A stretch of 8,718 nt of DNA, taken from the IMG/VR virus record IMGVR_UViG_2529292985_000034; one strand, given 5' to 3'. The stretch comes from a virus (taxonomy: Duplodnaviria > Heunggongvirae > Uroviricota > Caudoviricetes). Each line of letters begins with the position of its first letter. The stretch's first letter is position 1. Shown in pieces: positions 1-7,894 of this stretch. The position numbers and the translations under genes are program-made. Under the pieces are notes generated by a model, which made no database searches, was not told the origin of the DNA, and worked only from the letters and a program-made list of their open reading frames with translations.

Positions 1-1218
1 ATGAACAAACTGAGCGATACCTTGCTAAGGAAACTTCATGGTAAGCCAGCGGAGAAAAACACGTTTTATAGTGATGGCGGAAACCTGAGCGTGAAATATT
101 TAACATCAGGGAAATTGACCTGGTATTTCACATACAGGGCCGGAACGGGAAGGGAGACACGACCCGAACGCATTAAGCTGGGAAGTTATCCTGATCTGAG
201 CCTGAAATCAGCCAGGGAAAAAGCCGCCCAGTGTCGCGCATGGCTGGCAGAGGGGAAAAATCCACGTCATGAGCTTAATTACACCGTACAGGAAGCGTTA
301 AAGCCGGTAACGGTTGGCGATGCGCTCACCTACTGGCTTGAGTATTACGTAAAGGAAAACCGCGTGGATTATATCGCCCTGAAAAGGCGACTTAATAATC
401 ACGTAATACAGCAGATTGGTGCTATGCCGCTGGATAAATGCGAGCTACGGCACTGGCTGGCCTGTTTTGACCAGGTGGCAAAGCGAACGCCTGTTACTGC
501 CGGATTCGTGCTACAGGCGTGCAAACAGGCGCTTAAGTTCTGCCGTAGGCGGCGCTATGCAATCAGCAACGTTCTGGACGATCTGAACGTGGCGGACGTT
601 GGGAAAAAACCGGATATAAGCGAACGTGTCTTAAGTAACAAAGAACTTGGCGAATTATTGCAGGCACTGGACAAAAAAATATTCTCCCCTTACTACGTCG
701 CGTTAATCCGCCTCCTGATTGTCTTCGGAGCCAGAACGGTAGAACTGAGGTTATCGGAGATCGGGGAGTGGGATTTTACGGAAATGCTATGGACCGTTCC
801 GAAGGAGCACAGCAAAACGAAGGTCGCAATATTCCGGCCCATACCGGAAGCGATCCTGCCGTTCGTCACGCAGCTGGTGGAGCAGAACAGGCACACGGGC
901 TTATTGCTGGGGGAAGTGAAACAGGAGGCCAGCGTATCGCAGTATGGAAGATTAGCGCACAGGAGGCTTAATCATCCTCACTGGTCACTGCATGACATCC
1001 GGCGCACCTTTACAACCATGCTGAACGATTTAGGCGTTGATCCGCATGTCGTGGAGCAGCTTACAGGCCACCAGATGCCAGGAATGCAGCGAGTTTATAA
1101 TCATTCCCGTTATCTGGATGCTAAACGCAATGCGCTGGATATGTGGACGGAGCGGTTAGGGATACTGGCGGGAACACATGAAAACGTAACCACGCTACCA
1201 GTAGCCAGAAGAAAATAA
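1..1218 (+). CDS. int: P4-family tyrosine recombinase / integrase (405 aa)
   Basis: Full ORF from ATG at 1 to TAA at 1216-1218. N-terminal region (YSDGGNLSVKY...TWYFTYR) resembles the arm-binding domain of P4-type integrases. C-terminal catalytic signature residues are visible: ARTVELR (box I Arg), HSKTK (Lys), HDIRRTF (His-x-x-Arg), VYNHSRYL (Tyr). Confidence 0.9.
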   Translation: MNKLSDTLLRKLHGKPAEKNTFYSDGGNLSVKYLTSGKLTWYFTYRAGTGRETRPERIKLGSYPDLSLKSAREKAAQCRAWLAEGKNPRHELNYTVQEALKPVTVGDALTYWLEYYVKENRVDYIALKRRLNNHVIQQIGAMPLDKCELRHWLACFDQVAKRTPVTAGFVLQACKQALKFCRRRRYAISNVLDDLNVADVGKKPDISERVLSNKELGELLQALDKKIFSPYYVALIRLLIVFGARTVELRLSEIGEWDFTEMLWTVPKEHSKTKVAIFRPIPEAILPFVTQLVEQNRHTGLLLGEVKQEASVSQYGRLAHRRLNHPHWSLHDIRRTFTTMLNDLGVDPHVVEQLTGHQMPGMQRVYNHSRYLDAKRNALDMWTERLGILAGTHENVTTLPVARRK

Positions 1219-1235
1219 TTTTTTTCGTGTTTTTT

Positions 1236-1251
1236 CAGTATGCGCATACTG
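1236..1251. repeat. Perfect 16-bp palindrome CAGTATGCGCATACTG just downstream of int
   Basis: Read directly: CAGTATGC / GCATACTG are exact reverse complements. It is preceded, not followed, by T-tracts, so it looks more like a protein-binding dyad than a plus-strand terminator. Confidence 0.4.
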
Positions 1252-1263
1252 TATATGCGAACA

Positions 1264-1313
1264 GATACAACGTGCAACAATGAGCAACAATGTGGAACAA
1301 CCACGAACAAGAG
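1264..1313. repeat. Four to five phased 10-bp repeats with AACAA core
   Basis: Tandem 10-mers at 1274 (GCAACAATGA), 1284 (GCAACAATGT), 1294 (GGAACAACCA), 1304 (CGAACAAGAG), plus a degenerate copy at 1264 (GATACAACGT). Period is exactly 10 bp, in the int-alpA intergenic region. Confidence 0.4.
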
Positions 1314-1404
1314 GCGAAAAAGCATACAGATTTATAAGTGGCTGATTTTTAATGTGTCACTGGTTTTTTATACACTAGCGAATCACTCTTTAAAGAGCGA
1401 GAAA

Positions 1405-1433
1405 AAAGGCATGAAACAATATTTTATGCCTTT
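1405..1433. terminator. Putative intrinsic terminator hairpin in int-alpA spacer
   Basis: Perfect 8-bp stem AAAGGCAT (1405-1412) / ATGCCTTT (1426-1433) with a 13-nt loop. Flanked by an A-run upstream and TTTGTATT downstream, so it could terminate in either orientation. Confidence 0.3.
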
Positions 1434-1584
1434 GTATTAACATGAATTTAAAATATTTTATTCTTACTGTTTCATTTTCTGTAAATCATACATCCTCAAT
1501 ATTTGCCATTCATCACTCTAGCGGGAACAATACGACACAATAAGACACCTGATGACTCTTTAAGAAACGAAAGGGGGGGCAATA

Positions 1585-1773
1585 GTGTTAAGCACTGATC
1601 GGTTTATACGTGAAAAAGAATGCGAAAAACTAACCGGCCTTAGCCGTACGTGTCGCTACCGCCTGGAAAAGGCCGGACAATTCCCATCACGTCGTAAACT
1701 TGGCGGTCGTTCCGTTGGCTGGTCTTTATCCGAGGTTCTGGCCTGGAAGGATAGCTGCAAGGCAGTTCATTAA
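1585..1773 (+). CDS. alpA: AlpA/Vis-family phage transcriptional regulator (excisionase-like, 62 aa)
   Basis: GTG start at 1585 preceded by a G7 Shine-Dalgarno tract (1573-1579). Sequence DRFIREKECEKLTGLSRTCRYRLEKAGQFP matches the AlpA/Vis helix-turn-helix signature (ELTGLSRSTIYRL...G.FP). Position just downstream of a P4-type int is typical. Confidence 0.8.
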   Translation: MLSTDRFIREKECEKLTGLSRTCRYRLEKAGQFPSRRKLGGRSVGWSLSEVLAWKDSCKAVH

Positions 1774-1917
1774 TCACGCTGGCGGCACGCAGCCGCCACA
1801 CATCAATCATCTGAACACAGAGCTATAACCATGAAGATTGAATATACGCCAGAACGTGGGCGGGGATTCGTTCGCCCTGGTGAAACTGAAAAACAACAAA
1901 ATTGGGGTTTTTCAGGT

Positions 1918-1953
1918 ATAAAAAAAGCGGCCCCGAAATGGAGCCGCCTTTCT
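1918..1953 (-). terminator. Rho-independent terminator (minus-strand orientation; possibly bidirectional)
   Basis: Stem GCGGCCCC (1927-1934) / GGAGCCGC (1940-1947), 7 of 8 pairs, 5-nt loop. On the minus strand it is followed by a U-run (plus-strand A-run 1918-1926). It lies between the convergent alpA and minus-strand small genes. Confidence 0.5.
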
Positions 1954-2042
1954 GAACAGATAACCCGCTGCGCCGTTTGTGTGTGTGATCCCAAACATAA
2001 GCACGGGGATGATAGCCGCTATCAGGCTGGTGGGCAATGCAA

Positions 2043-2216
2043 TCAGTCTGGTTCAGTTCGTTGCCATACCTGCAATGAGCGCTTTTCCCTGTACTCTTTA
2101 AGGAATTGCTCAAGGGCAAAAGCACATGGTGCGAATCTTTCTGATTCATGCTCTATCTTTCTGCGCCGTCTTTTCCGTGCCGGTGATAATGTTTTGGTCA
2201 ATTCTTTATCGGTCAT
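2043..2216 (-). CDS. Hypothetical small basic protein (57 aa; alternative start at 2231 gives 62 aa)
   Basis: Minus-strand ORF downstream of the RHH gene. The internal ATG at 2216-2214 has AGGA 7 nt upstream. Arg/Lys-rich N-terminus (ARKRRRRK). The minus-strand terminator about 90 nt downstream supports a two-gene transcript. No recognisable family. Confidence 0.35.
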   Translation of the reverse strand: MTDKELTKTLSPARKRRRRKIEHESERFAPCAFALEQFLKEYREKRSLQVWQRTEPD

Positions 2217-2273
2217 TGTGTTGTCCTGCATAGCAATGCGCCGTAATACCTCACACCACGGCGCTGATAGTGA

Positions 2274-2453
2274 TTATTCTGATTCTTTGGCCTTGCGGCG
2301 CTGGCGGCGTTTGATCTCGCCTTCAAGTGCCGAAACGATAAATTGCCCTGTACTTTCGCCATCTTCCTTTAAATTTTCTACAGCATCAGCTATTGCGTGT
2401 GGTACTCGAGCCTCAAGCTTTTTGGATTTTGCATTAACTGCTTTTGTTGCCAT
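2274..2453 (-). CDS. Ribbon-helix-helix (Arc/CopG-like) DNA-binding protein, 59 aa; candidate repressor
   Basis: ATG at 2453-2451 with GAGGA 8 nt upstream. KKLEARVPHAIADAVENL fits the RHH pattern: beta-strand with alternating polar residues, Pro, then helix A. C-terminal basic tail. Divergent from the operon promoter that carries the triple repeat. Confidence 0.6.
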   Translation of the reverse strand: MATKAVNAKSKKLEARVPHAIADAVENLKEDGESTGQFIVSALEGEIKRRQRRKAKESE

Positions 2454-2474
2454 ATCTGATTTCCTCGTTATTAG

Positions 2475-2555
2475 GTGGCTGACAGTATACACACAAGAAA
2501 ACGGAAAAACACTATTGACGTGGCTGACACCCGTTACTAATATAGTGGCTGACAC
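2475..2555. promoter_or_regulatory. Operator-like triple direct repeat GTGGCTGACA
   Basis: Exact 10-mer GTGGCTGACA at 2475-2484, 2520-2529 and 2546-2555. Copy 2 lies in the promoter spacer; copy 3 lies just downstream of the -10 element, over the likely start site. Each copy has outer GTG/CAC dyad symmetry. Confidence 0.5.
2515..2543 (+). promoter_or_regulatory. Sigma70-like promoter for the rightward operon
   Basis: TTGACG (2515-2520), 17-bp spacer, TAATAT (2538-2543). About 100 bp upstream of the first operon ORF. Confidence 0.45.
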
Positions 2556-2647
2556 CTTTATCAAGGTAATCGATGAAAAGACAAAGCCCCGCAAGTGTCG
2601 TTACCACTCGCAGGGCTTCTAACCAACAACGTAAACTAGGAGCCGTT

Positions 2648-2845
2648 ATGGTTGCTGTAAATCATATACCACACCTTGTACACACACAAACGGCCTTTGT
2701 GTGGCGTTTTCTGGCACTGAGTGCCGGAGAATCTCAAATCATCCACGTAACCGCCTGGACGGAACGCGAAGCGCGTAACCGTTGCCCGTCCGGTTGTGTT
2801 GCTGTATTTGCCGCCCGTATTCGTCAGGAGGTGCGCCATGATTAA
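2648..2845 (+). CDS. Hypothetical protein, 65 aa (first gene of early operon)
   Basis: ATG at 2648 with GGAG 5 nt upstream (2639-2642). Stop overlaps the start of the next ORF. The longer 2573 start of the tracked ORF has no RBS and runs through the promoter. Confidence 0.55.
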   Translation: MVAVNHIPHLVHTQTAFVWRFLALSAGESQIIHVTAWTEREARNRCPSGCVAVFAARIRQEVRHD

Positions 2846-3050
2846 TCTGTCACTTACTGACCTTAACCGCATTCAGTTTCGTGAGAAATTCACAGGGCAG
2901 CTACTGGTCAATGTGGATAAAGGTCGCGTGGTGTGTAATTACCACTTACCAGATGAAGCAATTGTCGCCACAAGGGAATCATTACAGGAAATCACAAAAC
3001 GTGCCGGAATGATTAACACGAATATTCAGGGGATGCTTTATGCACAATAA
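2838..3050 (+). CDS. Hypothetical protein, 70 aa
   Basis: ATG at 2838 with AGGAGG 6 nt upstream (2826-2831). Overlaps the preceding stop by 8 nt and the next start by 11 nt (translational coupling). Confidence 0.6.
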   Translation: MINLSLTDLNRIQFREKFTGQLLVNVDKGRVVCNYHLPDEAIVATRESLQEITKRAGMINTNIQGMLYAQ

Positions 3051-3279
3051 AACCACACCGGACGCAGCCGCCGAAGCCATCAAAACGCTGATGCACGCGC
3101 TGATTGATATTTCTGTTATCGCGGACAGGGCACATAAGCACGCCACCAGCGAAACAGAATATGCCGGTGCTTTCGTTCCTCACTCACTGGCTGTCATGCA
3201 ATTTAGTGCTGATACGGCGCTGAATGAGGCCAAAGCTATCCTGATTGCTGATTGTGAAAATGGGGGGGGTTATGCGTGA
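3040..3279 (+). CDS. Hypothetical protein, 79 aa
   Basis: ATG at 3040 with AGGGGA upstream. The C-terminus (ENGGGYA) is encoded across a G8 homopolymer. Its stop overlaps the next start (ATGCGTGA). Confidence 0.6.
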   Translation: MHNKTTPDAAAEAIKTLMHALIDISVIADRAHKHATSETEYAGAFVPHSLAVMQFSADTALNEAKAILIADCENGGGYA

Positions 3280-3505
3280 TGATCGTTTTAATTCCCTGAA
3301 ACAGGAATTTTCCGGCGTTCCTGATGATGCGGCTGATGCGCTTTCGTCAATGCCAGAACTTATTAGAGCGGCTTTTTTCTTACTTTCCACGAGAGAATAT
3401 AAATCAACGGGGCTTGATGTACTGAATATCGCCGCCGATTATGCGGAATATGTGGCAGAGGCGCGTTATAGAAGAAAATTTCCTGAGGATGTAAGCCATG
3501 CGTGA
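3272..3505 (+). CDS. Hypothetical protein, 77 aa
   Basis: ATG at 3272 immediately after the G8 tract, which acts as RBS. ATGCGTGA overlap with the upstream stop. The same junction geometry recurs at 3498. Confidence 0.6.
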   Translation: MRDDRFNSLKQEFSGVPDDAADALSSMPELIRAAFFLLSTREYKSTGLDVLNIAADYAEYVAEARYRRKFPEDVSHA

Positions 3506-3731
3506 TATTTACCACCAAACAATAGACCGCGCATTTCTTGCACTTTCTCACAGTGAAAACATGATGGAAATATTGCGCATATGGCTTGAAACACTTGGCG
3601 ACAATGAACGCGACAAACAAAAATCAAGAATTGCCACAGCATTAATAACGCTTCTTGAGCCTGTAATAATGGAACTGCAAGAAATAGATCTATTGCACGA
3701 CAGATATAAAGAACAGCACACCGGAGAATAA
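3498..3731 (+). CDS. Hypothetical protein, 77 aa
   Basis: ATG at 3498 with GAGGA 9 nt upstream. ATGCGTGA overlap with the upstream stop. Predicted largely helical, acidic. Confidence 0.6.
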   Translation: MRDIYHQTIDRAFLALSHSENMMEILRIWLETLGDNERDKQKSRIATALITLLEPVIMELQEIDLLHDRYKEQHTGE

Positions 3732-3736
3732 AAATA

Positions 3737-4036
3737 ATGAAACTTAAATATTCTGGCTTAACTGCCAGTGGCAACACTCACCCTAAATTTACGCGCGGTG
3801 ATATTTACCGCGACCAGTACGGCGGCACGGTAATGATTAAGGACGTGGAAGAACGGCGCGTAACCTACCGCCGTGAAGGTTACGAATATGATTGCGTGAT
3901 GCCTGTTTATCAGTTCCGGCGTGATTTTTCTCTGGTACAGACCGCGCCGCATAACGTGCCCACCAGCAACGCCAGGGCACGGGCAAACATCCAGAAGCTG
4001 AAAACCATGGTTAACGGATTCAGGGGCAAGAAATGA
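3737..4036 (+). CDS. Hypothetical protein, 99 aa
   Basis: ATG at 3737 with GGAGA 10 nt upstream. Stop overlaps the start of the replication gene (ATGA at 4033-4036). Basic, Tyr/Arg-rich. Confidence 0.65.
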   Translation: MKLKYSGLTASGNTHPKFTRGDIYRDQYGGTVMIKDVEERRVTYRREGYEYDCVMPVYQFRRDFSLVQTAPHNVPTSNARARANIQKLKTMVNGFRGKK

Positions 4037-5433
4037 AAAGCGCACCGAACTTAAAAAAACAGCCTTACGACAAGATGACCGAAGTCATTATTTTTGCGGG
4101 TAGTGATGCCTGGGCACATGCGAAACAGTGGCAGGAACAGGACGGGCGACTGGCTGGCGATAATGTGCCTCCCGTTGTGCTGGCTGATGATCAACTGGAT
4201 GAACTGGCAGACCTGAGAATCATCGACGAGGGGCGCTATTGTGTCCGGCTGTACAAGGCAGGCCACATCAGGCCATCAAATATTAATGCCATTGCGCACA
4301 AGCTGGCGGCGGCGGGTGTAACTGATGCGAATTATTACCCCGAAGGGATGCACAGCCATATGCGGGAGAACTGGCGCGAATACCTGGAACGGGTGCGCGG
4401 GAAAGAGCCGGCGGAAGAAAAAAACCACCAGCGAAAAACCACGCTACCGATGAGCGTTGGATCTACCGGATACGACACGCAACTGGATTACGTGGTTAAG
4501 GGGATTATTCCGGCGGTATCGCTATGCAGCATATACGGGGCTAGCGGGTCCTATAAATCATTCCTTGCCGGATCGTGGGCGTGCCATGTTGCCACTGGTC
4601 GCCAGTGGGGAGGCCGCAGGGTTGCACATGGTGCGGTTCTCTATGTGGTTGGTGAAGGCGGTATAGGTGTTCCGCGTCGTGTAAAAGCCTGGGAGGTTGT
4701 GCACGATGAGCAGGTGAAAAATCTGTATCTGGTAAACCGCCCCATCTTTCCGGCTGCCCCGCTTGATGTTGATGAAATGGTTATCGCTGCCCGTCAGGTG
4801 GAGCGGGAAACGGGTAAACCTGTACGCATGATTATTCTGGATACGCTGGCGCGTTGCTTTGGTGGGAATGATGAAAATGATTCCCGTGATATGGGGGCGT
4901 TTATCCGTGGTTGTGACGAACTGAAACGACGCACAGGGGCCACGGTGCTGGTGGTTCACCATTCCGGCAAGGATGAGACGAAAGGCGCGCGCGGTTCCAG
5001 TGCATTTCGTGCTTCGCTGGATGCTGAATACCGGATACGCAGGGAGGACGCAGGAAGCGAAGCGCTGGTTATCTCATGCACCAAAATGAAGGACGCGGAG
5101 GAACTCAAAGAAGCCGCATATGACTTACGCGTGGTGGAGCTTTTTACCGACGCTGACGGTGAATTAATCACGTCGCTGGTGGTGGTGGATGATCCGCGCC
5201 CTCCTGTTGAACTGGAGCGCATCGAGGAGGCAGGGAACAAGACGGAAAACCATACCGCGCTATGGGGGTGCATCCGTTCACGCACACAGAACGGCGACAA
5301 GTGCACGATCCCGCTGTTACGTGATGACATGAAAAAGCTGGGGTATGAAATGAAAAACTTCCGGCGCTGGCTGTACAAGCTGGAAAAAGATGGGGTTATT
5401 CGTATCGATGGGGATGATGTAGCGCCGCTATAA
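4033..5433 (+). CDS. Replication protein: toprim-like N-terminal domain + RecA-like/RepA-type P-loop ATPase (primase/helicase of the island), 466 aa
   Basis: Walker A GASGSYKS, Walker B-like VRMIILDT, and an N-terminal acidic toprim-like segment (VIIFAGSDA ... LADDQLDE). Last gene of the coupled operon; iteron array immediately downstream. Confidence 0.85.
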   Translation: MKSAPNLKKQPYDKMTEVIIFAGSDAWAHAKQWQEQDGRLAGDNVPPVVLADDQLDELADLRIIDEGRYCVRLYKAGHIRPSNINAIAHKLAAAGVTDANYYPEGMHSHMRENWREYLERVRGKEPAEEKNHQRKTTLPMSVGSTGYDTQLDYVVKGIIPAVSLCSIYGASGSYKSFLAGSWACHVATGRQWGGRRVAHGAVLYVVGEGGIGVPRRVKAWEVVHDEQVKNLYLVNRPIFPAAPLDVDEMVIAARQVERETGKPVRMIILDTLARCFGGNDENDSRDMGAFIRGCDELKRRTGATVLVVHHSGKDETKGARGSSAFRASLDAEYRIRREDAGSEALVISCTKMKDAEELKEAAYDLRVVELFTDADGELITSLVVVDDPRPPVELERIEEAGNKTENHTALWGCIRSRTQNGDKCTIPLLRDDMKKLGYEMKNFRRWLYKLEKDGVIRIDGDDVAPL

Positions 5434-5624
5434 AAGTGAGGAGCAAAAGCGAGGGGGATAGAAAGAGGGCCAAAATTAGCCCGCTCTCCCTCACTTTTCG
5501 ACCTGTATACATCCTCAAAAGTGAGGGGTAAAAAAATACTTATGAAACACACACATAGAAAAACCGAAAATCCCAACTGCGACGAAGTGAGACGCTTGAA
5601 AAAGTGAGGCGAAAAAGTGAGAGG
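5432..5624. repeat. Iteron array (AAAGTGAGG family) with A-rich spacer; putative island replication origin
   Basis: Copies at 5432-5441, 5517-5528, 5584-5592, 5599-5610, 5612-5624; variants at 5445-5457 and 5461-5469; an inverted copy at 5489-5498. The inverted copy forms a perfect 10-bp inverted repeat with the 5517-5526 copy. An A-rich stretch lies at 5529-5575. Confidence 0.55.
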
Positions 5625-5633
5625 TTGCGAGAA

Positions 5634-5785
5634 ATGACCCAAAAACGCAGAGACAGAACAGAGCCAAAATATAAAGCGTTAGACATGACTGAGCACACCT
5701 TAAAGGTGGCAATCAGAACGATAGACCGCCACACGCGGGAAGGATACGCGAAGGAACATCCCGACCTGATAAGCGCATTCATGAC
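5634..5785 (+). pseudogene. Small island ORF whose 3' end is replaced by the IS600 terminus (doubtful gene)
   Basis: ORF beginning MTQKRRDR... runs in frame into the IS left inverted repeat, where it meets a TGA belonging to the IS. It overlaps the iteron region, so coding status is uncertain. Confidence 0.25.
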
Positions 5786-5849
5786 TGAGGTAGCCTGAGT
5801 TTAACGGACACTCCTTCCTGAAATAGAATGGCATCAGAAGGAGCTAATA

Positions 5850-6152
5850 ATGAGCAGAAAAAACCAACGTTACTCTAAAGAGTTCAAAGCCGAAGCTGTC
5901 AGAACGGTTCTTGAAAATCAACTTTCGATCAGTGAAGGCGCTTCCCGATTATCCCTTCCTGAAGGCACTTTAGGACAATGGGTTACCGCCGCCAGAAAAG
6001 GGCTCGGTACTCCTGGTTCCCGCACGGTGGCTGAACTGGAATCTGAAATTCTGCAACTGCGTAAGGCGTTAAATGAAGCTCGCCTTGAGCGAGATATATT
6101 AAAAAAAGCAACAGCGTATTTTGCACAGGAGTCGCTGAAAAATACGCGTTAA
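5850..6152 (+). CDS. IS3-family transposase OrfA (HTH, leucine zipper), 100 aa
   Basis: MSRKNQRYSKEFKAEAVR... is typical of IS3-family OrfA. Slippery A7 run at 6101-6107 near its 3' end. Confidence 0.9.
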   Translation: MSRKNQRYSKEFKAEAVRTVLENQLSISEGASRLSLPEGTLGQWVTAARKGLGTPGSRTVAELESEILQLRKALNEARLERDILKKATAYFAQESLKNTR

Positions 6153-6187
6153 TCGAACAATGGCGACAACAATTTCCCATTGAAGCG

Positions 6188-7006
6188 ATGTGTCAGGTAT
6201 TTGGTGTATCCAGGAGCGGTTATTACAACTGGGTACAGCATGAACCCTCAGACAGAAAACAAAGTGATGAGCGGCTAAAACTGGAGATTAAGGTGGCACA
6301 TATCCGCACTCGCGAAACATATGGAACCCGGCGGCTCCAGACGGAGCTGGCAGAGAATGGCATCATCGTTGGTCGTGACCGACTGGCACGTCTTCGTAAG
6401 GAGCTAAGGCTACGCTGTAAGCAGAAACGCAAGTTCAGAGCGACTACGAACCCGAACCACAATCTGCCAGTTGCGCCAAATCTGCTGAACCAGACGTTCG
6501 CTCCTACAGCACCAAATCAGGTCTGGGTGGCGGACCTGACGTATGTTGCCACACAGGAGGGATGGTTGTACCTCGCTGGCATCAAAGATGTTTATACGTG
6601 CGAAATTGTCGGCTACGCCATGGGAGAGCGCATGACAAAAGAGCTGACAGGTAAAGCCCTGTTTATGGCGCTCAGGAGCCAGCGCCCACCTGCCGGGCTA
6701 ATCCACCACTCTGATCGAGGTTCACAGTACTGCGCATACGATTACCGGGTCATACAGGAGCAGTCTGGTCTGAAAACATCAATGTCGCGTAAAGGTCACT
6801 GTTACGACAACGCTCCGATGGAAAGCTTCTGGGGAACGCTGAAAAATGAGAGCCTGAGCCACTATCGTTTTAATAACCGGGATGAAGCCATCTCAGTAAT
6901 ACGGGAATACATTGAGATTTTCTACAATCGTCAGCGTCGTCACTCTCGTCTGGGGAATATCTCCCCGGCAGCCTTCAGGGAAAAATATCATCAGATGGCT
7001 GCTTAA
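6188..7006 (+). CDS. IS3-family transposase OrfB (DDE catalytic domain), 272 aa; expressed as OrfAB fusion by -1 frameshift
   Basis: DDE motif residues in WVADLTYV, HHSDRGSQY and YDNAPMESFWGTLK. The orfB frame is -1 relative to orfA and is open upstream back to the A7 slippery site. Confidence 0.9.
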   Translation: MCQVFGVSRSGYYNWVQHEPSDRKQSDERLKLEIKVAHIRTRETYGTRRLQTELAENGIIVGRDRLARLRKELRLRCKQKRKFRATTNPNHNLPVAPNLLNQTFAPTAPNQVWVADLTYVATQEGWLYLAGIKDVYTCEIVGYAMGERMTKELTGKALFMALRSQRPPAGLIHHSDRGSQYCAYDYRVIQEQSGLKTSMSRKGHCYDNAPMESFWGTLKNESLSHYRFNNRDEAISVIREYIEIFYNRQRRHSRLGNISPAAFREKYHQMAA

Positions 7007-7049
7007 AAAAAGAACAAATGGTAGTGTCCGCTATTGCCAGTACACCTCA

Positions 7050-7894
7050 GTTTACTGGTGGGCTACATCGCCTGGCTGGCGACCGCTTACCGGATGAGCT
7101 TTTCCCGCGAAATCAATCTGGGCCTGGCGCAACATGAGTTCGAATTGTTCTGTCAGCCTTTGCTTAATGCGCGCAGCCAGCAATGTATTGGTGTAGAGAT
7201 TTTGCTGCGCTGGAACAATCCGCGTCAGGGCCGGATTTCACCGGATGTGTTTATTCCTATCGCGGAAGAACATCATTTAATTGTGCCACTGACCCGCTAT
7301 GTGATGGCAGAAACCATTCGTCAGCGCCATGTTTTCCCGATGAGTAGTCAGTTTCATGTTGGCATTAACGTCGCACCCAGCCATTTTCGCCGTGGTGTGC
7401 TGATAAAAGATCTCAATCAGTACTGGTTTAGCGCTCACCCGATTCAGCAACTGATCCTCGAAATCACCGAACGCGATGCCTTACTGGATGTTGATTATCG
7501 GATTGCCCGCGAGCTACATCGTAAAAACGTCAAACTGGCGATTGATGACTTCGGCACCGGCAACAGTTCATTTTCCTGGCTTGAAACATTACGTCCTGAC
7601 GTGCTGAAAATTGATAAGTCATTTACCGCAGCTATAGGTTCTGACGCGGTTAACTCGACGGTGACCGATATCATCATCGCGCTGGGGCAAAGACTGAATA
7701 TTGAACTGGTGGCGGAGGGCGTGGAAACGCAAGAACAGGCGAAGTATTTGCGCCGTCATGGCGTGCATATTTTGCAAGGGTATTTGTACGCACAGCCGAT
7801 GCCGCTACGTGATTTTCCCAAATGGCTGGCGGGCAGCCAACCGCCGCCCGCCCGGCATAATGGACATATCACGCCCATTATGCCGTTACGTTAA
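7050..7894 (+). pseudogene. EAL-domain c-di-GMP phosphodiesterase gene, 5'-truncated by IS600
   Basis: EAL-domain motifs ELFCQP, DDFGTG, KIDKSF and VAEGVET. A transmembrane segment (LSLLVGYIAWLATAY) precedes the EAL domain. The reading frame is open right up to the IS end with no credible native start, consistent with a CSS-type membrane phosphodiesterase that has lost its N-terminal half. Confidence 0.8.

Follow-up and report, generated by a model that had tools for sequence, protein, structure and literature searches.

An iteron array directly after the replicase gene as the very probable replication origin of an EcCIO42-type phage-inducible chromosomal island

The window examined in this work, a stretch of 8718 nt catalogued as viral (IMG/VR record IMGVR_UViG_2529292985_000034), carries in its positions 1-5785 a phage-inducible chromosomal island (PICI) that is 99.9% identical to the tqsA-inserted island of Escherichia coli 042 (EcCIO42). 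The gene for a 466-residue replication protein of this island (Rep) is followed immediately by a cluster of short repeats, or iterons, arranged in two sets that are separated by an A-rich stretch (Table 1). An earlier reading, made from the sequence alone, had taken this cluster for an iteron-type origin like those of Staphylococcus aureus pathogenicity islands (SaPIs) and other PICIs, located directly after a pri-rep gene. Position, architecture and comparative evidence support an origin of this type, and we consider the region 5432-5633 to be, very probably, the replication origin of the EcCIO42-type island. As for its placement, the cluster does lie directly after the replication gene, but the assignment of that gene as pri-rep did not stand, since only a RepA/AAA_25 core and a winged helix are detectable in its product.

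Results

The iteron array

The array was read over positions 5300-5800, and with a repeat finder, which gave a unit length of 9-11 bp and spacings of 13-17 bp. The heptamer AAGTGAG is present six times in the window, five times in direct and once in inverted orientation, and every copy falls inside 5434-5621. Dinucleotide-preserving shuffles contain 0.8 copies on average and never more than 3, so that six are reached in 0 of 200. When the longer unit AAAGTGAGG is searched with at most one mismatch, eight matches are found in the window against the 1.7 expected, six of them within the cluster. Sequence inspection and the repeat finder thus bear out what the sequence-only reading had described, that is, at least five direct copies, degenerate variants and one inverted copy. 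Chance clustering of the repeats was set aside as a weakly supported explanation.

The layout comprises a left set (5432-5527), an A-rich stretch (5528-5583) and a right set (5584-5633). The array ends somewhat beyond position 5624, where the cluster had been thought to stop, with a decayed copy that reaches about 5633. All the copies that border the A-rich stretch (5517-5527 and 5584-5622) are on the plus strand, and the sole inverted copy lies inside the left set, where it forms a perfect inverted repeat with the direct copy that follows it. The arms of this inverted repeat measure 11 bp and not the 10 bp first counted, and the 18-nt spacer with its GTATAC was correctly described.

The claim that the iterons flank an A-rich stretch is upheld by both the AT skew, which rises to 0.50 at 5501-5700, and the low duplex stability of the region. 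The AT content is 70-77% across 5520-5560, and by nearest-neighbour calculation the 30-mer at 5529-5558, at -32.3 kcal/mol, ranks as the fourth least stable of the window, for which the mean is -41.0 (sd 3.4). As a single strand, the A-rich spacer shows no structure (-0.2 kcal/mol, z = +0.6). For the inverted repeat, single-stranded DNA hairpins of -9.6 and -9.7 kcal/mol were calculated on the two strands (z = -4.7 and -3.7). Neither DnaA boxes, IHF or Fis consensus sequences nor GATC sites were found within the array, nor was any TTWTNCACA found in 5300-5800. This absence of DnaA boxes, IHF consensus and GATC fits an origin that is independent of DnaA, and leaves a DnaA-dependent or Dam-regulated origin unsupported.

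Other kinds of element were also sought in the region. An Rfam scan of 5350-5800 returned only a chance-level match to SprD (19.8 bits, with a gathering threshold of 100), and a structured RNA of known family was rejected. A scan of 5250-5900 for promoters and terminators found nothing inside the array; a weak promoter-like site appears at 5801-5829, beyond the junction of the island with the insertion sequence IS600 at about 5786, and a hairpin of terminator-like form on the minus strand (5467-5482) does not exceed chance. Since no T-run comes after the inverted repeat, it was rejected as an intrinsic terminator of rep.

Table 1. Features of the window, in order of position
Feature	Position	Strand	Remarks
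Tyrosine integrase gene	1-1218		Pfam
DUF4222 protein gene	3737-4036		Pfam
rep, 466-aa AAA_25 protein	4033-5433	+	Pfam
Coding region of the winged-helix domain, predicted iteron reader	5230-5430	+	Residues 400-466
Asn442 codon, AAC	5356-5358	+	Located where the predicted recognition helix (443-452) begins; candidate for the residue that sets base 6 of the iterons
Iteron L1, AAAAGTGAGG	5432-5441	+	Overlaps the rep stop TAA (5431-5433); relatives mostly have a copy at +0 to +15 from the stop
Iteron L2, AAAAGCGAGG	5445-5454	+	One mismatch; aligns with the second left-arm copy of relatives
Inverted iteron, CCCTCACTTTT	5488-5498	-	Left arm of the 11-bp inverted repeat; in relatives mostly at about +43 to +58
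Spacer of the inverted repeat, 18 nt	5499-5516	.	GTATAC at 5505-5510; TATA centre conserved
Iteron, AAAAGTGAGGG	5517-5527	+	Right arm of the inverted repeat; in relatives mostly at about +72 to +88
A-rich low-stability spacer, putative DNA-unwinding element	5528-5583	.	AT content, duplex stability
Iteron R1, GAAGTGAGAC	5584-5593	+	
Iteron R2, AAAAGTGAGG	5600-5609	+	
Iteron R3, AAAAGTGAGA	5613-5622	+	
Decayed iteron R4, TTGCGAGAA (GCGAGA)	~5625-5633	+	Abuts the ATG of the next gene at 5634
83-aa gene, 5' part (phrog_1231)	5634-5785	+	Cut by IS600; annotated CDS in the intact islands L001 and L002; PHROG match
IS600 (IS3 family)	5850-7006		orfA 5850-6152, orfB 6188-7006
EAL-domain gene pdeD	7034-7894		Pfam; ISSso6 beyond

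The Rep protein

A Pfam search with Rep detected AAA_25 only (residues 148-315, E=2.4e-43), in agreement with its RefSeq label of 'helicase RepA family protein', and the closest structure by sequence in the PDB is the RepA helicase of plasmid RSF1010 (1g8y), a weak but specific match over residues 150-321 (E=0.005). Three domains can be delimited: an N-terminal alpha/beta domain (about 17-123), a RepA-type helicase core with RecA fold (about 148-390) and a C-terminal winged helix (about 400-466). The full-length AlphaFold2 model, obtained from an alignment of 28 sequences, has a mean pLDDT of 65.7, and its fold matches were restricted to the RecA-like core (Rad51, RadA, T7 gp4).

The C-terminal domain, which was also modelled alone for a Foldseek search, is predicted with a pLDDT of 81-93 in the full model and of 86.9 by itself. 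It shows a helix-helix-helix-strand-strand topology, with helices at 405-419, 426-435 and 443-452 followed by the two strands. Nearly all its top Foldseek matches in the PDB are winged-helix domains, most of them DNA-binding, and include LexA, DtxR/IdeR, MarR, Fur/Zur, IclR, the histones H1/H5, the winged helix of MCM8, ORC/Cdc6 and the N-terminal domain of DnaD. The probabilities of these matches (0.9-0.98) and their TM scores (0.55-0.76) are accompanied by weak E-values (0.05-0.24), as expected for a domain of 76 residues.

No D5/SF3 helicase match was obtained for Rep. Pfam gave no family either for the N-terminal 140 residues or for the C-terminal domain alone, and NCBIfam searches with the domains gave only sub-threshold matches to RadA. 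The N-terminal region of about 130 residues does match positions 84-190 of phrog_864, annotated as 'DNA primase' (E=1.6e-13). On the basis of these matches and models, Rep would combine a helicase of RepA type and RecA fold with a winged helix, and be analogous in function to the SaPI Reps, with a motor domain that is not homologous to theirs. In a phage collection, the relatives of Rep have the helicase core only, lacking the C-terminal domain, and the single match that reaches residue 463 is a chromosomal contig of Salmonella; the collection gave no evidence of the rep-ori module in true phages.

The DUF4222 gene and the first 120 codons or so of rep are common to three replicase alleles of E. 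coli PICIs, namely the RepA-type helicase, the 'DNA primase family' and the DUF927 alleles, with about 76% nucleotide identity across the first 390 nt or so of rep. This shared segment corresponds to 4033-4425 of the window (Rep residues 1-130) and to 4501-4889 in each of two sister islands, L083 and L084 (numbers of this form designate individual homologous loci). An N-terminus common to alleles that otherwise differ indicates that Rep is a mosaic with a shared N-terminal module.

Conservation of the array in homologous loci

A scan of one genome per species for relatives of Rep yielded 80 loci in the Enterobacterales, with 50-72% identity, from Xenorhabdus, Pectobacterium, Serratia, Pantoea, Morganella, Citrobacter, Kosakonia, Enterobacter, Kluyvera and others. 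Of the 78 loci with sufficient flanking sequence, about 70 have between 3 and 12 copies of the motif A[AG]TGNGG within 200 nt past the rep stop, when 0.3-1.0 copies would be expected from the rest of each locus. The sequence-only reading had named the absence of the iterons from islands that keep rep as contrary to its proposal; with the array kept in about 70 loci, this comparison does not refute it. The positions of the repeats are conserved as well: counted from the stop, a direct copy comes first (+0 to +15), then an inverted one between about +43 and +58, a direct one 29 nt further (about +85) and, after a gap of some 55-65 nt, direct copies near +145/155, +170 and +182. Among the loci with little or no array are some with a broken rep, such as L079, which has lost the C-terminal motif, and L080, with an internal stop. 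Across 22 aligned origins, only the iterons and the middle of the inverted-repeat spacer are kept, with drift everywhere else, a pattern that speaks against both coding sequence and structured RNA. The array lies directly 3' of rep alike in the window, in these loci (about 70) and in EcCICFT073, another E. coli PICI.

Two E. coli loci, L089 (2913-3390) and L090 (2898-3377), have a longer region of about 480 nt after rep, with scattered iterons and a second inverted-iteron module (CCTCACTTTTGCGTATATATAAGGATTAAAAAGTGAG at about +280). The next genes in these two loci encode a ProQ-domain protein and PerC in place of the 83-residue product and the single-stranded DNA-binding protein (ssb).

The inverted pair deserves separate consideration. 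Its cores are 22 nt apart in 54 of 60 regular-expression hits, whereas the E. coli clade has 24 nt. All 58 true cases have TATA in the spacer, and the central columns of the spacer do not vary across the 22 aligned loci. The stems vary with the iteron type while the loop length and the TATA centre are kept. The 55 nt that follow the pair in the relatives have a mean AT content of 70%, compared to 49% at the 3' end of rep. The 18-nt TATA spacer may be where melting or bending starts, or the loop of a hairpin on single-stranded DNA. In the 58 loci, the trinucleotide CTG is often found beside the TATA centre (as in CCTGTATAC, at 5499-5516 of the window). CTG is the template trinucleotide preferred by the DnaG primase of E. 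coli, and its presence here is a possible lead on the location of priming.

A hairpin at this place could by itself be a priming or primosome-assembly signal, similar to ssiA and ssiB of RSF1010, with the direct iterons as the only double-strand sites for Rep. The helicase core of Rep resembles RSF1010 RepA, and the oriV of RSF1010 makes use of hairpin ssi signals. Moreover, the single-stranded hairpin is stable on both strands, its loop length and TATA centre are conserved with stems that follow the iteron type, and a Rep without a primase domain needs a priming signal somewhere. However, both arms are iterons, so that their co-variation is equally well explained by two opposed Rep domains bound to double-stranded DNA, and the parts of the island seen here contain no RepB'-like primase. 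We regard this explanation as unlikely, and it complements an origin in the array rather than competing with it.

The comparison with sister islands shows which gene the repeats accompany. L083 (an E. coli G6/7 island) and L084, from the 'DNA primase family'/'DUF927' set, have in the same slot unrelated iterons, GGTGAACAG and TAACCCGCA, respectively. As these islands share the DUF4222 gene and the Rep N-terminus with the island of the window, the repeats follow the helicase/C-terminal allele; they go neither with the upstream genes that are shared, nor with the N-terminus of Rep, nor with what lies downstream. In L083, a primase-family allele, about 12 iterons (GGTGAACAG / CTGTTCACC) in both orientations occupy positions 6318-6606. 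They contain TGTTCACC, the type I iteron of the alpha protein of satellite phage P4, and this allele looks like a P4-alpha-type replicon placed in a PICI backbone with an HK97-type capsid module.

The same observation bears on whether the repeats are mainly operators, bound by Rep or another island regulator to control how the genes that follow (small ORF, ssb, perC and packaging genes) are transcribed or translated. Iteron-binding initiators of plasmids commonly autoregulate, the fold of the winged helix resembles many repressors, and the array ends, in the window as in its relatives, with an iteron that adjoins or overlaps the next gene's ribosome-binding site and ATG; at the position of the decayed last copy of the window, L086 and L088 have good copies (AGTGAGG and AGTGGGG) just before the ATG that overlap the ribosome-binding site. 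Nevertheless, no sigma-70-like promoter or terminator consensus is found inside 5432-5634, and what the array tracks is the replicase allele, not the regulators shared upstream nor the downstream genes, which vary from ProQ/PerC in L089 to HK97-type capsid modules in L083 and L084. In addition, the syntenic array of EcCICFT073 is required in cis for replication (PMC6092414). A mainly regulatory array is thus very improbable, and a regulatory side effect of the iterons on the next gene, through the last copy overlapping its ribosome-binding site, is plausible.

Co-variation of Rep residue 442 and iteron base 6

The core of the iterons varies at one base, AAGTG-A/G/C-GG, and all the copies within an origin agree. 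The A-type core (AAGTGAGG) is found in the islands of O42/O157 type of E. coli and in Xenorhabdus, the G-type (AAGTGGGG) in most other loci, and the C-type (AAGTGCGG) in a group from Citrobacter, Kosakonia, Enterobacter and Kluyvera. Among the columns of the Rep alignment, residue 442 has the highest mutual information with the iteron type, and its value is the maximum possible. Across the loci with at least four iteron copies, this residue matches base 6 in 76 of 76 cases (25 of Asn-A, 10 of His-G, 34 of Lys-G and 7 of Ser-C), and on a neighbour-joining tree of the helicase core, built without the C-terminal domain, at least nine state changes are needed for both characters. In the AlphaFold2 model, residue 442 directly precedes helix 3, the usual recognition helix of this fold.

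A natural recombinant separates the two characters. In L086, from E. coli STEC383, the last 240 coding nucleotides of rep are 92.9% identical to those of L089, an Asn-type allele, and its origin is only 65.6% identical to that of L089 and 91.1% identical to the His/G-type origin of L088. In the last 69 residues, the sole amino-acid difference between the Reps of L086 and L089 is N442H (AAC to CAC), which matches the G-type iterons that adjoin it in L086. Asn with adenine and Lys or His with guanine are common preferences in protein-DNA contacts. Origin specificity appears, from these comparisons of sequence, to be set at least in part by residue 442 reading base 6, in the window Asn with A. 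With modest confidence, we propose a code of one residue and one base (Asn-A, His/Lys-G, Ser-C), in which single substitutions, with a concerted change of the 6-10 iteron copies coming after each of them, would have repeatedly made new, mutually orthogonal satellite replicons across the Enterobacterales.

A variation at another position was noticed in L008, L016 and L026 (Xenorhabdus and a metagenome-assembled genome of Enterobacteriaceae), whose left arm uses AAATGAGG, with A in place of G at base 3. Their Reps have KLENDG where relatives have KLEQDG or KLEHDG, at the equivalent of residue 453, just past the recognition helix. This may be a second co-varying pair, weakly indicated by three loci of one clade.

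The tracking of Rep by the array also bears on a role of the repeats as a packaging site, of pac or cosB-like type, bound by a small terminase. Small terminase subunits often bind short repeats and related islands do encode terS, but the array follows Rep residue 442 and the rep allele, it is found beside rep in islands with differing or absent packaging modules, and the cos sites of EcCICFT073 were mapped apart from its ori. A packaging site was rejected on these grounds of allele tracking and variable packaging modules, and its probability is minimal.

The island and its truncation

Besides its near identity with EcCIO42, the segment 1-5785 is about 98% identical to islands of O157:H7, O55:H7, O145 and O111 strains, and the family was found in 440 of 5426 complete E. 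coli genomes (about 8%), including O157:H7, O145, O26 and O111 strains. EcCIO42 is a named representative of the Gram-negative PICIs in Fillol-Salom et al. 2018 (PMC6092414), where four Pri-Rep alleles of E. coli are distinguished, that of EcCIO42 among them. Intact copies have the order int, a gene for an alpA-like helix-turn-helix protein, icd-like, small ORFs, DUF4222, 'helicase RepA family protein', the 83-residue ORF and ssb, after which come perC, capsid, head decoration and terS genes. The window follows the gene order of PICIs up to 5785, and the packaging part is missing through IS600. Homology to E. coli 042 stops at that position, some 150 bp past the repeats, and IS600 interrupts the 83-residue gene at about 5786, which entails the loss of the ssb, perC, capsid and terS genes and probably that of attR. 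The sequence beyond the break, with IS600, pdeD and ISSso6, indicates that the island was taken from a Shigella- or EIEC-like genome.

The origin could therefore be intact in sequence but a relic in this genome, lacking a current function since ssb, perC and the capsid genes, and probably attR as well, were lost to IS600, and the element would be unable to go through a full satellite cycle. The identity with EcCIO42 does end at 5785, with IS600, pdeD and ISSso6 following. Still, int, the alpA-like gene, rep and the iterons are intact, and firing driven by Rep, either in situ or after excision, is possible. In fact, Rep is 99.8% identical to the proteins of 042 and O157, and int, the alpA-like gene and every iteron are unchanged. 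A relic origin is a possibility to be taken seriously, against which we lean slightly, and it concerns the present use of the feature, not its identity.

Some other traits of the island were recorded. The DUF4222 stop overlaps the rep start in an ATGA at 4033-4036, and the same overlap occurs in every related island examined, a disposition that suggests translational coupling of DUF4222 and Rep. The intergenic region between int and the alpA-like gene (1300-1600) is very AT-rich, with a GC content of 0.30-0.33, includes the least stable 30-mer of the window (1435-1464) and is probably the regulatory region of the island. An ORF of 263 codons at 1831-2622 has no Pfam match; its counterpart carries the annotation of a truncated pseudogene in the islands of O157 (Icd-like) and 042 (hypothetical protein).

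Discussion

A model of replication initiation

The data available for other PICIs help to interpret the array. According to PMC6092414, the region immediately 3' of the replication initiator gene of PICIs is the origin, with two sets of iterons around an AT-rich region, and a plasmid with rep and ori of EcCICFT073 was maintained at the restrictive temperature, whereas those without either ori or rep were not. In EcCICFT073 the origin is found in the syntenic slot, with rep on one side and the small ORF and ssb on the other, and has about 13 copies of CTGTCTACC in both orientations. In the island of the window, two iteron sets separated by an AT-rich stretch are found in that slot, and the in silico evidence points to an initiator-helicase with a C-terminal winged helix that would be specific for its own iterons.

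The process that we infer would start with the induction of the island, presumably dependent on AlpA as shown for EcCICFT073, and the synthesis of the 466-residue Rep. Its winged helix would bind the 9-11-bp iterons, that is, two or three direct copies at the rep stop, the head-to-head pair, and three or four copies beyond the A-rich segment. Rep bound in this way would be concentrated on both sides of the A-rich segment of about 55 nt, and either this segment or the TATA spacer would melt. The RecA-fold helicase ring of Rep would then load itself on the exposed single strand, with no participation of DnaA, and priming would be supplied from elsewhere. A scheme of self-loading has been established for the SaPI Reps (PMC9371898).

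Several points weigh against an origin of this kind. The iterons of SaPIs are opposed across the AT-rich region (PMC9371898), an arrangement that is not present here: the two iteron sets around the A-rich stretch point the same way and the only opposed pair flanks the TATA spacer, so that either segment could be the melting site. No primase domain is detectable in Rep with Pfam or NCBIfam that would account for priming. The experimental test covers only the origin of EcCICFT073, with another replicase allele and other iterons, and the island of the window is without everything after 5785, so that the origin may no longer serve a mobile element. Finally, about 300 bp span both residue 442 and the iterons, the codon being only some 75 nt upstream of the first iteron, and linkage inflates their association at the tips of the tree; beyond linkage, the proposed reading of base 6 by residue 442 is supported only by the L086 recombinant and by the uniformity of the copies within each origin.

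The kind of origin described here is already published and the island is a named one, so that the finding itself is ordinary. By itself it has little weight beyond annotating the origin of a known family of phage satellites of E. coli and Shigella. In the literature searched, the iteron string retrieved unrelated primer matches only, and we found neither the conserved head-to-head pair with a TATA-centred spacer, nor the RecA-fold rather than AAA+ motor of this allele, nor a description of the correspondence between residue 442 and base 6. Of more use are the comparative results: the Rep allele, the head-to-head pair and the apparent specificity of residue 442 offer a testable handle on the orthogonality of these replicons and on the incompatibility of co-resident satellites, and could help to build orthogonal Rep/ori pairs.

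Comparison with known systems

The classical iteron plasmids (pPS10, R6K, RK2, F, P1), as well as the O protein and ori of phage lambda, share with the array the repeated initiator sites next to an AT-rich element. They differ in having iterons of 17-22 bp, non-helicase initiators of the Rep_3/WH1-WH2 or O type, and DnaA boxes, and in that the host DnaB is delivered by DnaC or lambda P, whereas here the initiator carries its own helicase. An origin of the classical iteron-plasmid type was rejected owing to the wrong initiator family, the short iterons and the absence of DnaA boxes.

RSF1010 and other IncQ plasmids provide the closest solved relative of the helicase, as well as iterons, an AT-rich segment and an inverted repeat. 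Their replication roles, however, are split among RepA, RepB' and RepC, and their 20-bp iterons are bound by RepC, in contrast to the DNA-binding domain fused to the helicase in the protein studied here. Homologues of RepB' and RepC were found neither in the window nor in L001 and L002, which are intact islands, and an IncQ oriV was accordingly discarded. With the P4 alpha system, the similarity lies in a satellite replicon with one initiator-helicase, a C-terminal DNA-binding domain and short iterons. P4 differs by its primase domain, its SF3 helicase and a second cis site, crr, located kilobases away, none of which was seen here; in the window, all the AAGTGAG copies are in one cluster and no second cis element of the P4 kind appears. 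Identity with the P4 ori/crr was rejected for the lack of primase or D5/SF3 helicase matches and for this single iteron cluster.

The SaPI origins (Ubeda et al.; Qiao et al. 2022, PMC9371898) are alike in that ori comes after rep and 6-12 iterons are split by an AT-rich region, and the SaPI Reps in that the initiator is a helicase whose C-terminal winged helix reads the iterons, with no known loader. Those Reps belong to superfamily 3 of the AAA+ proteins and move in the 3'-5' direction, while the Rep described here has a RecA fold of RepA/DnaB type and by family would run 5'-3'. Likewise, SaPI iterons are of 5-6 nt and opposed across the AT region, compared with the iterons of 9-11 nt and the opposed pair bracketing an 18-nt TATA spacer found in this array.

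The closest system is that of the Gram-negative PICIs described in PMC6092414. Within that family, EcCICFT073 differs by its iterons, CTGTCTACC instead of AAAGTGAGG, and by a replicase of the 'DNA primase family protein' type instead of a RepA-type helicase without a primase domain. The origins are found in the same slot, 3' of rep and before the small ORF and ssb, and have the same two-set plan, the backbone of int, alpA, icd-like, DUF4222 and rep is the same, and the island of the window is essentially EcCIO42.

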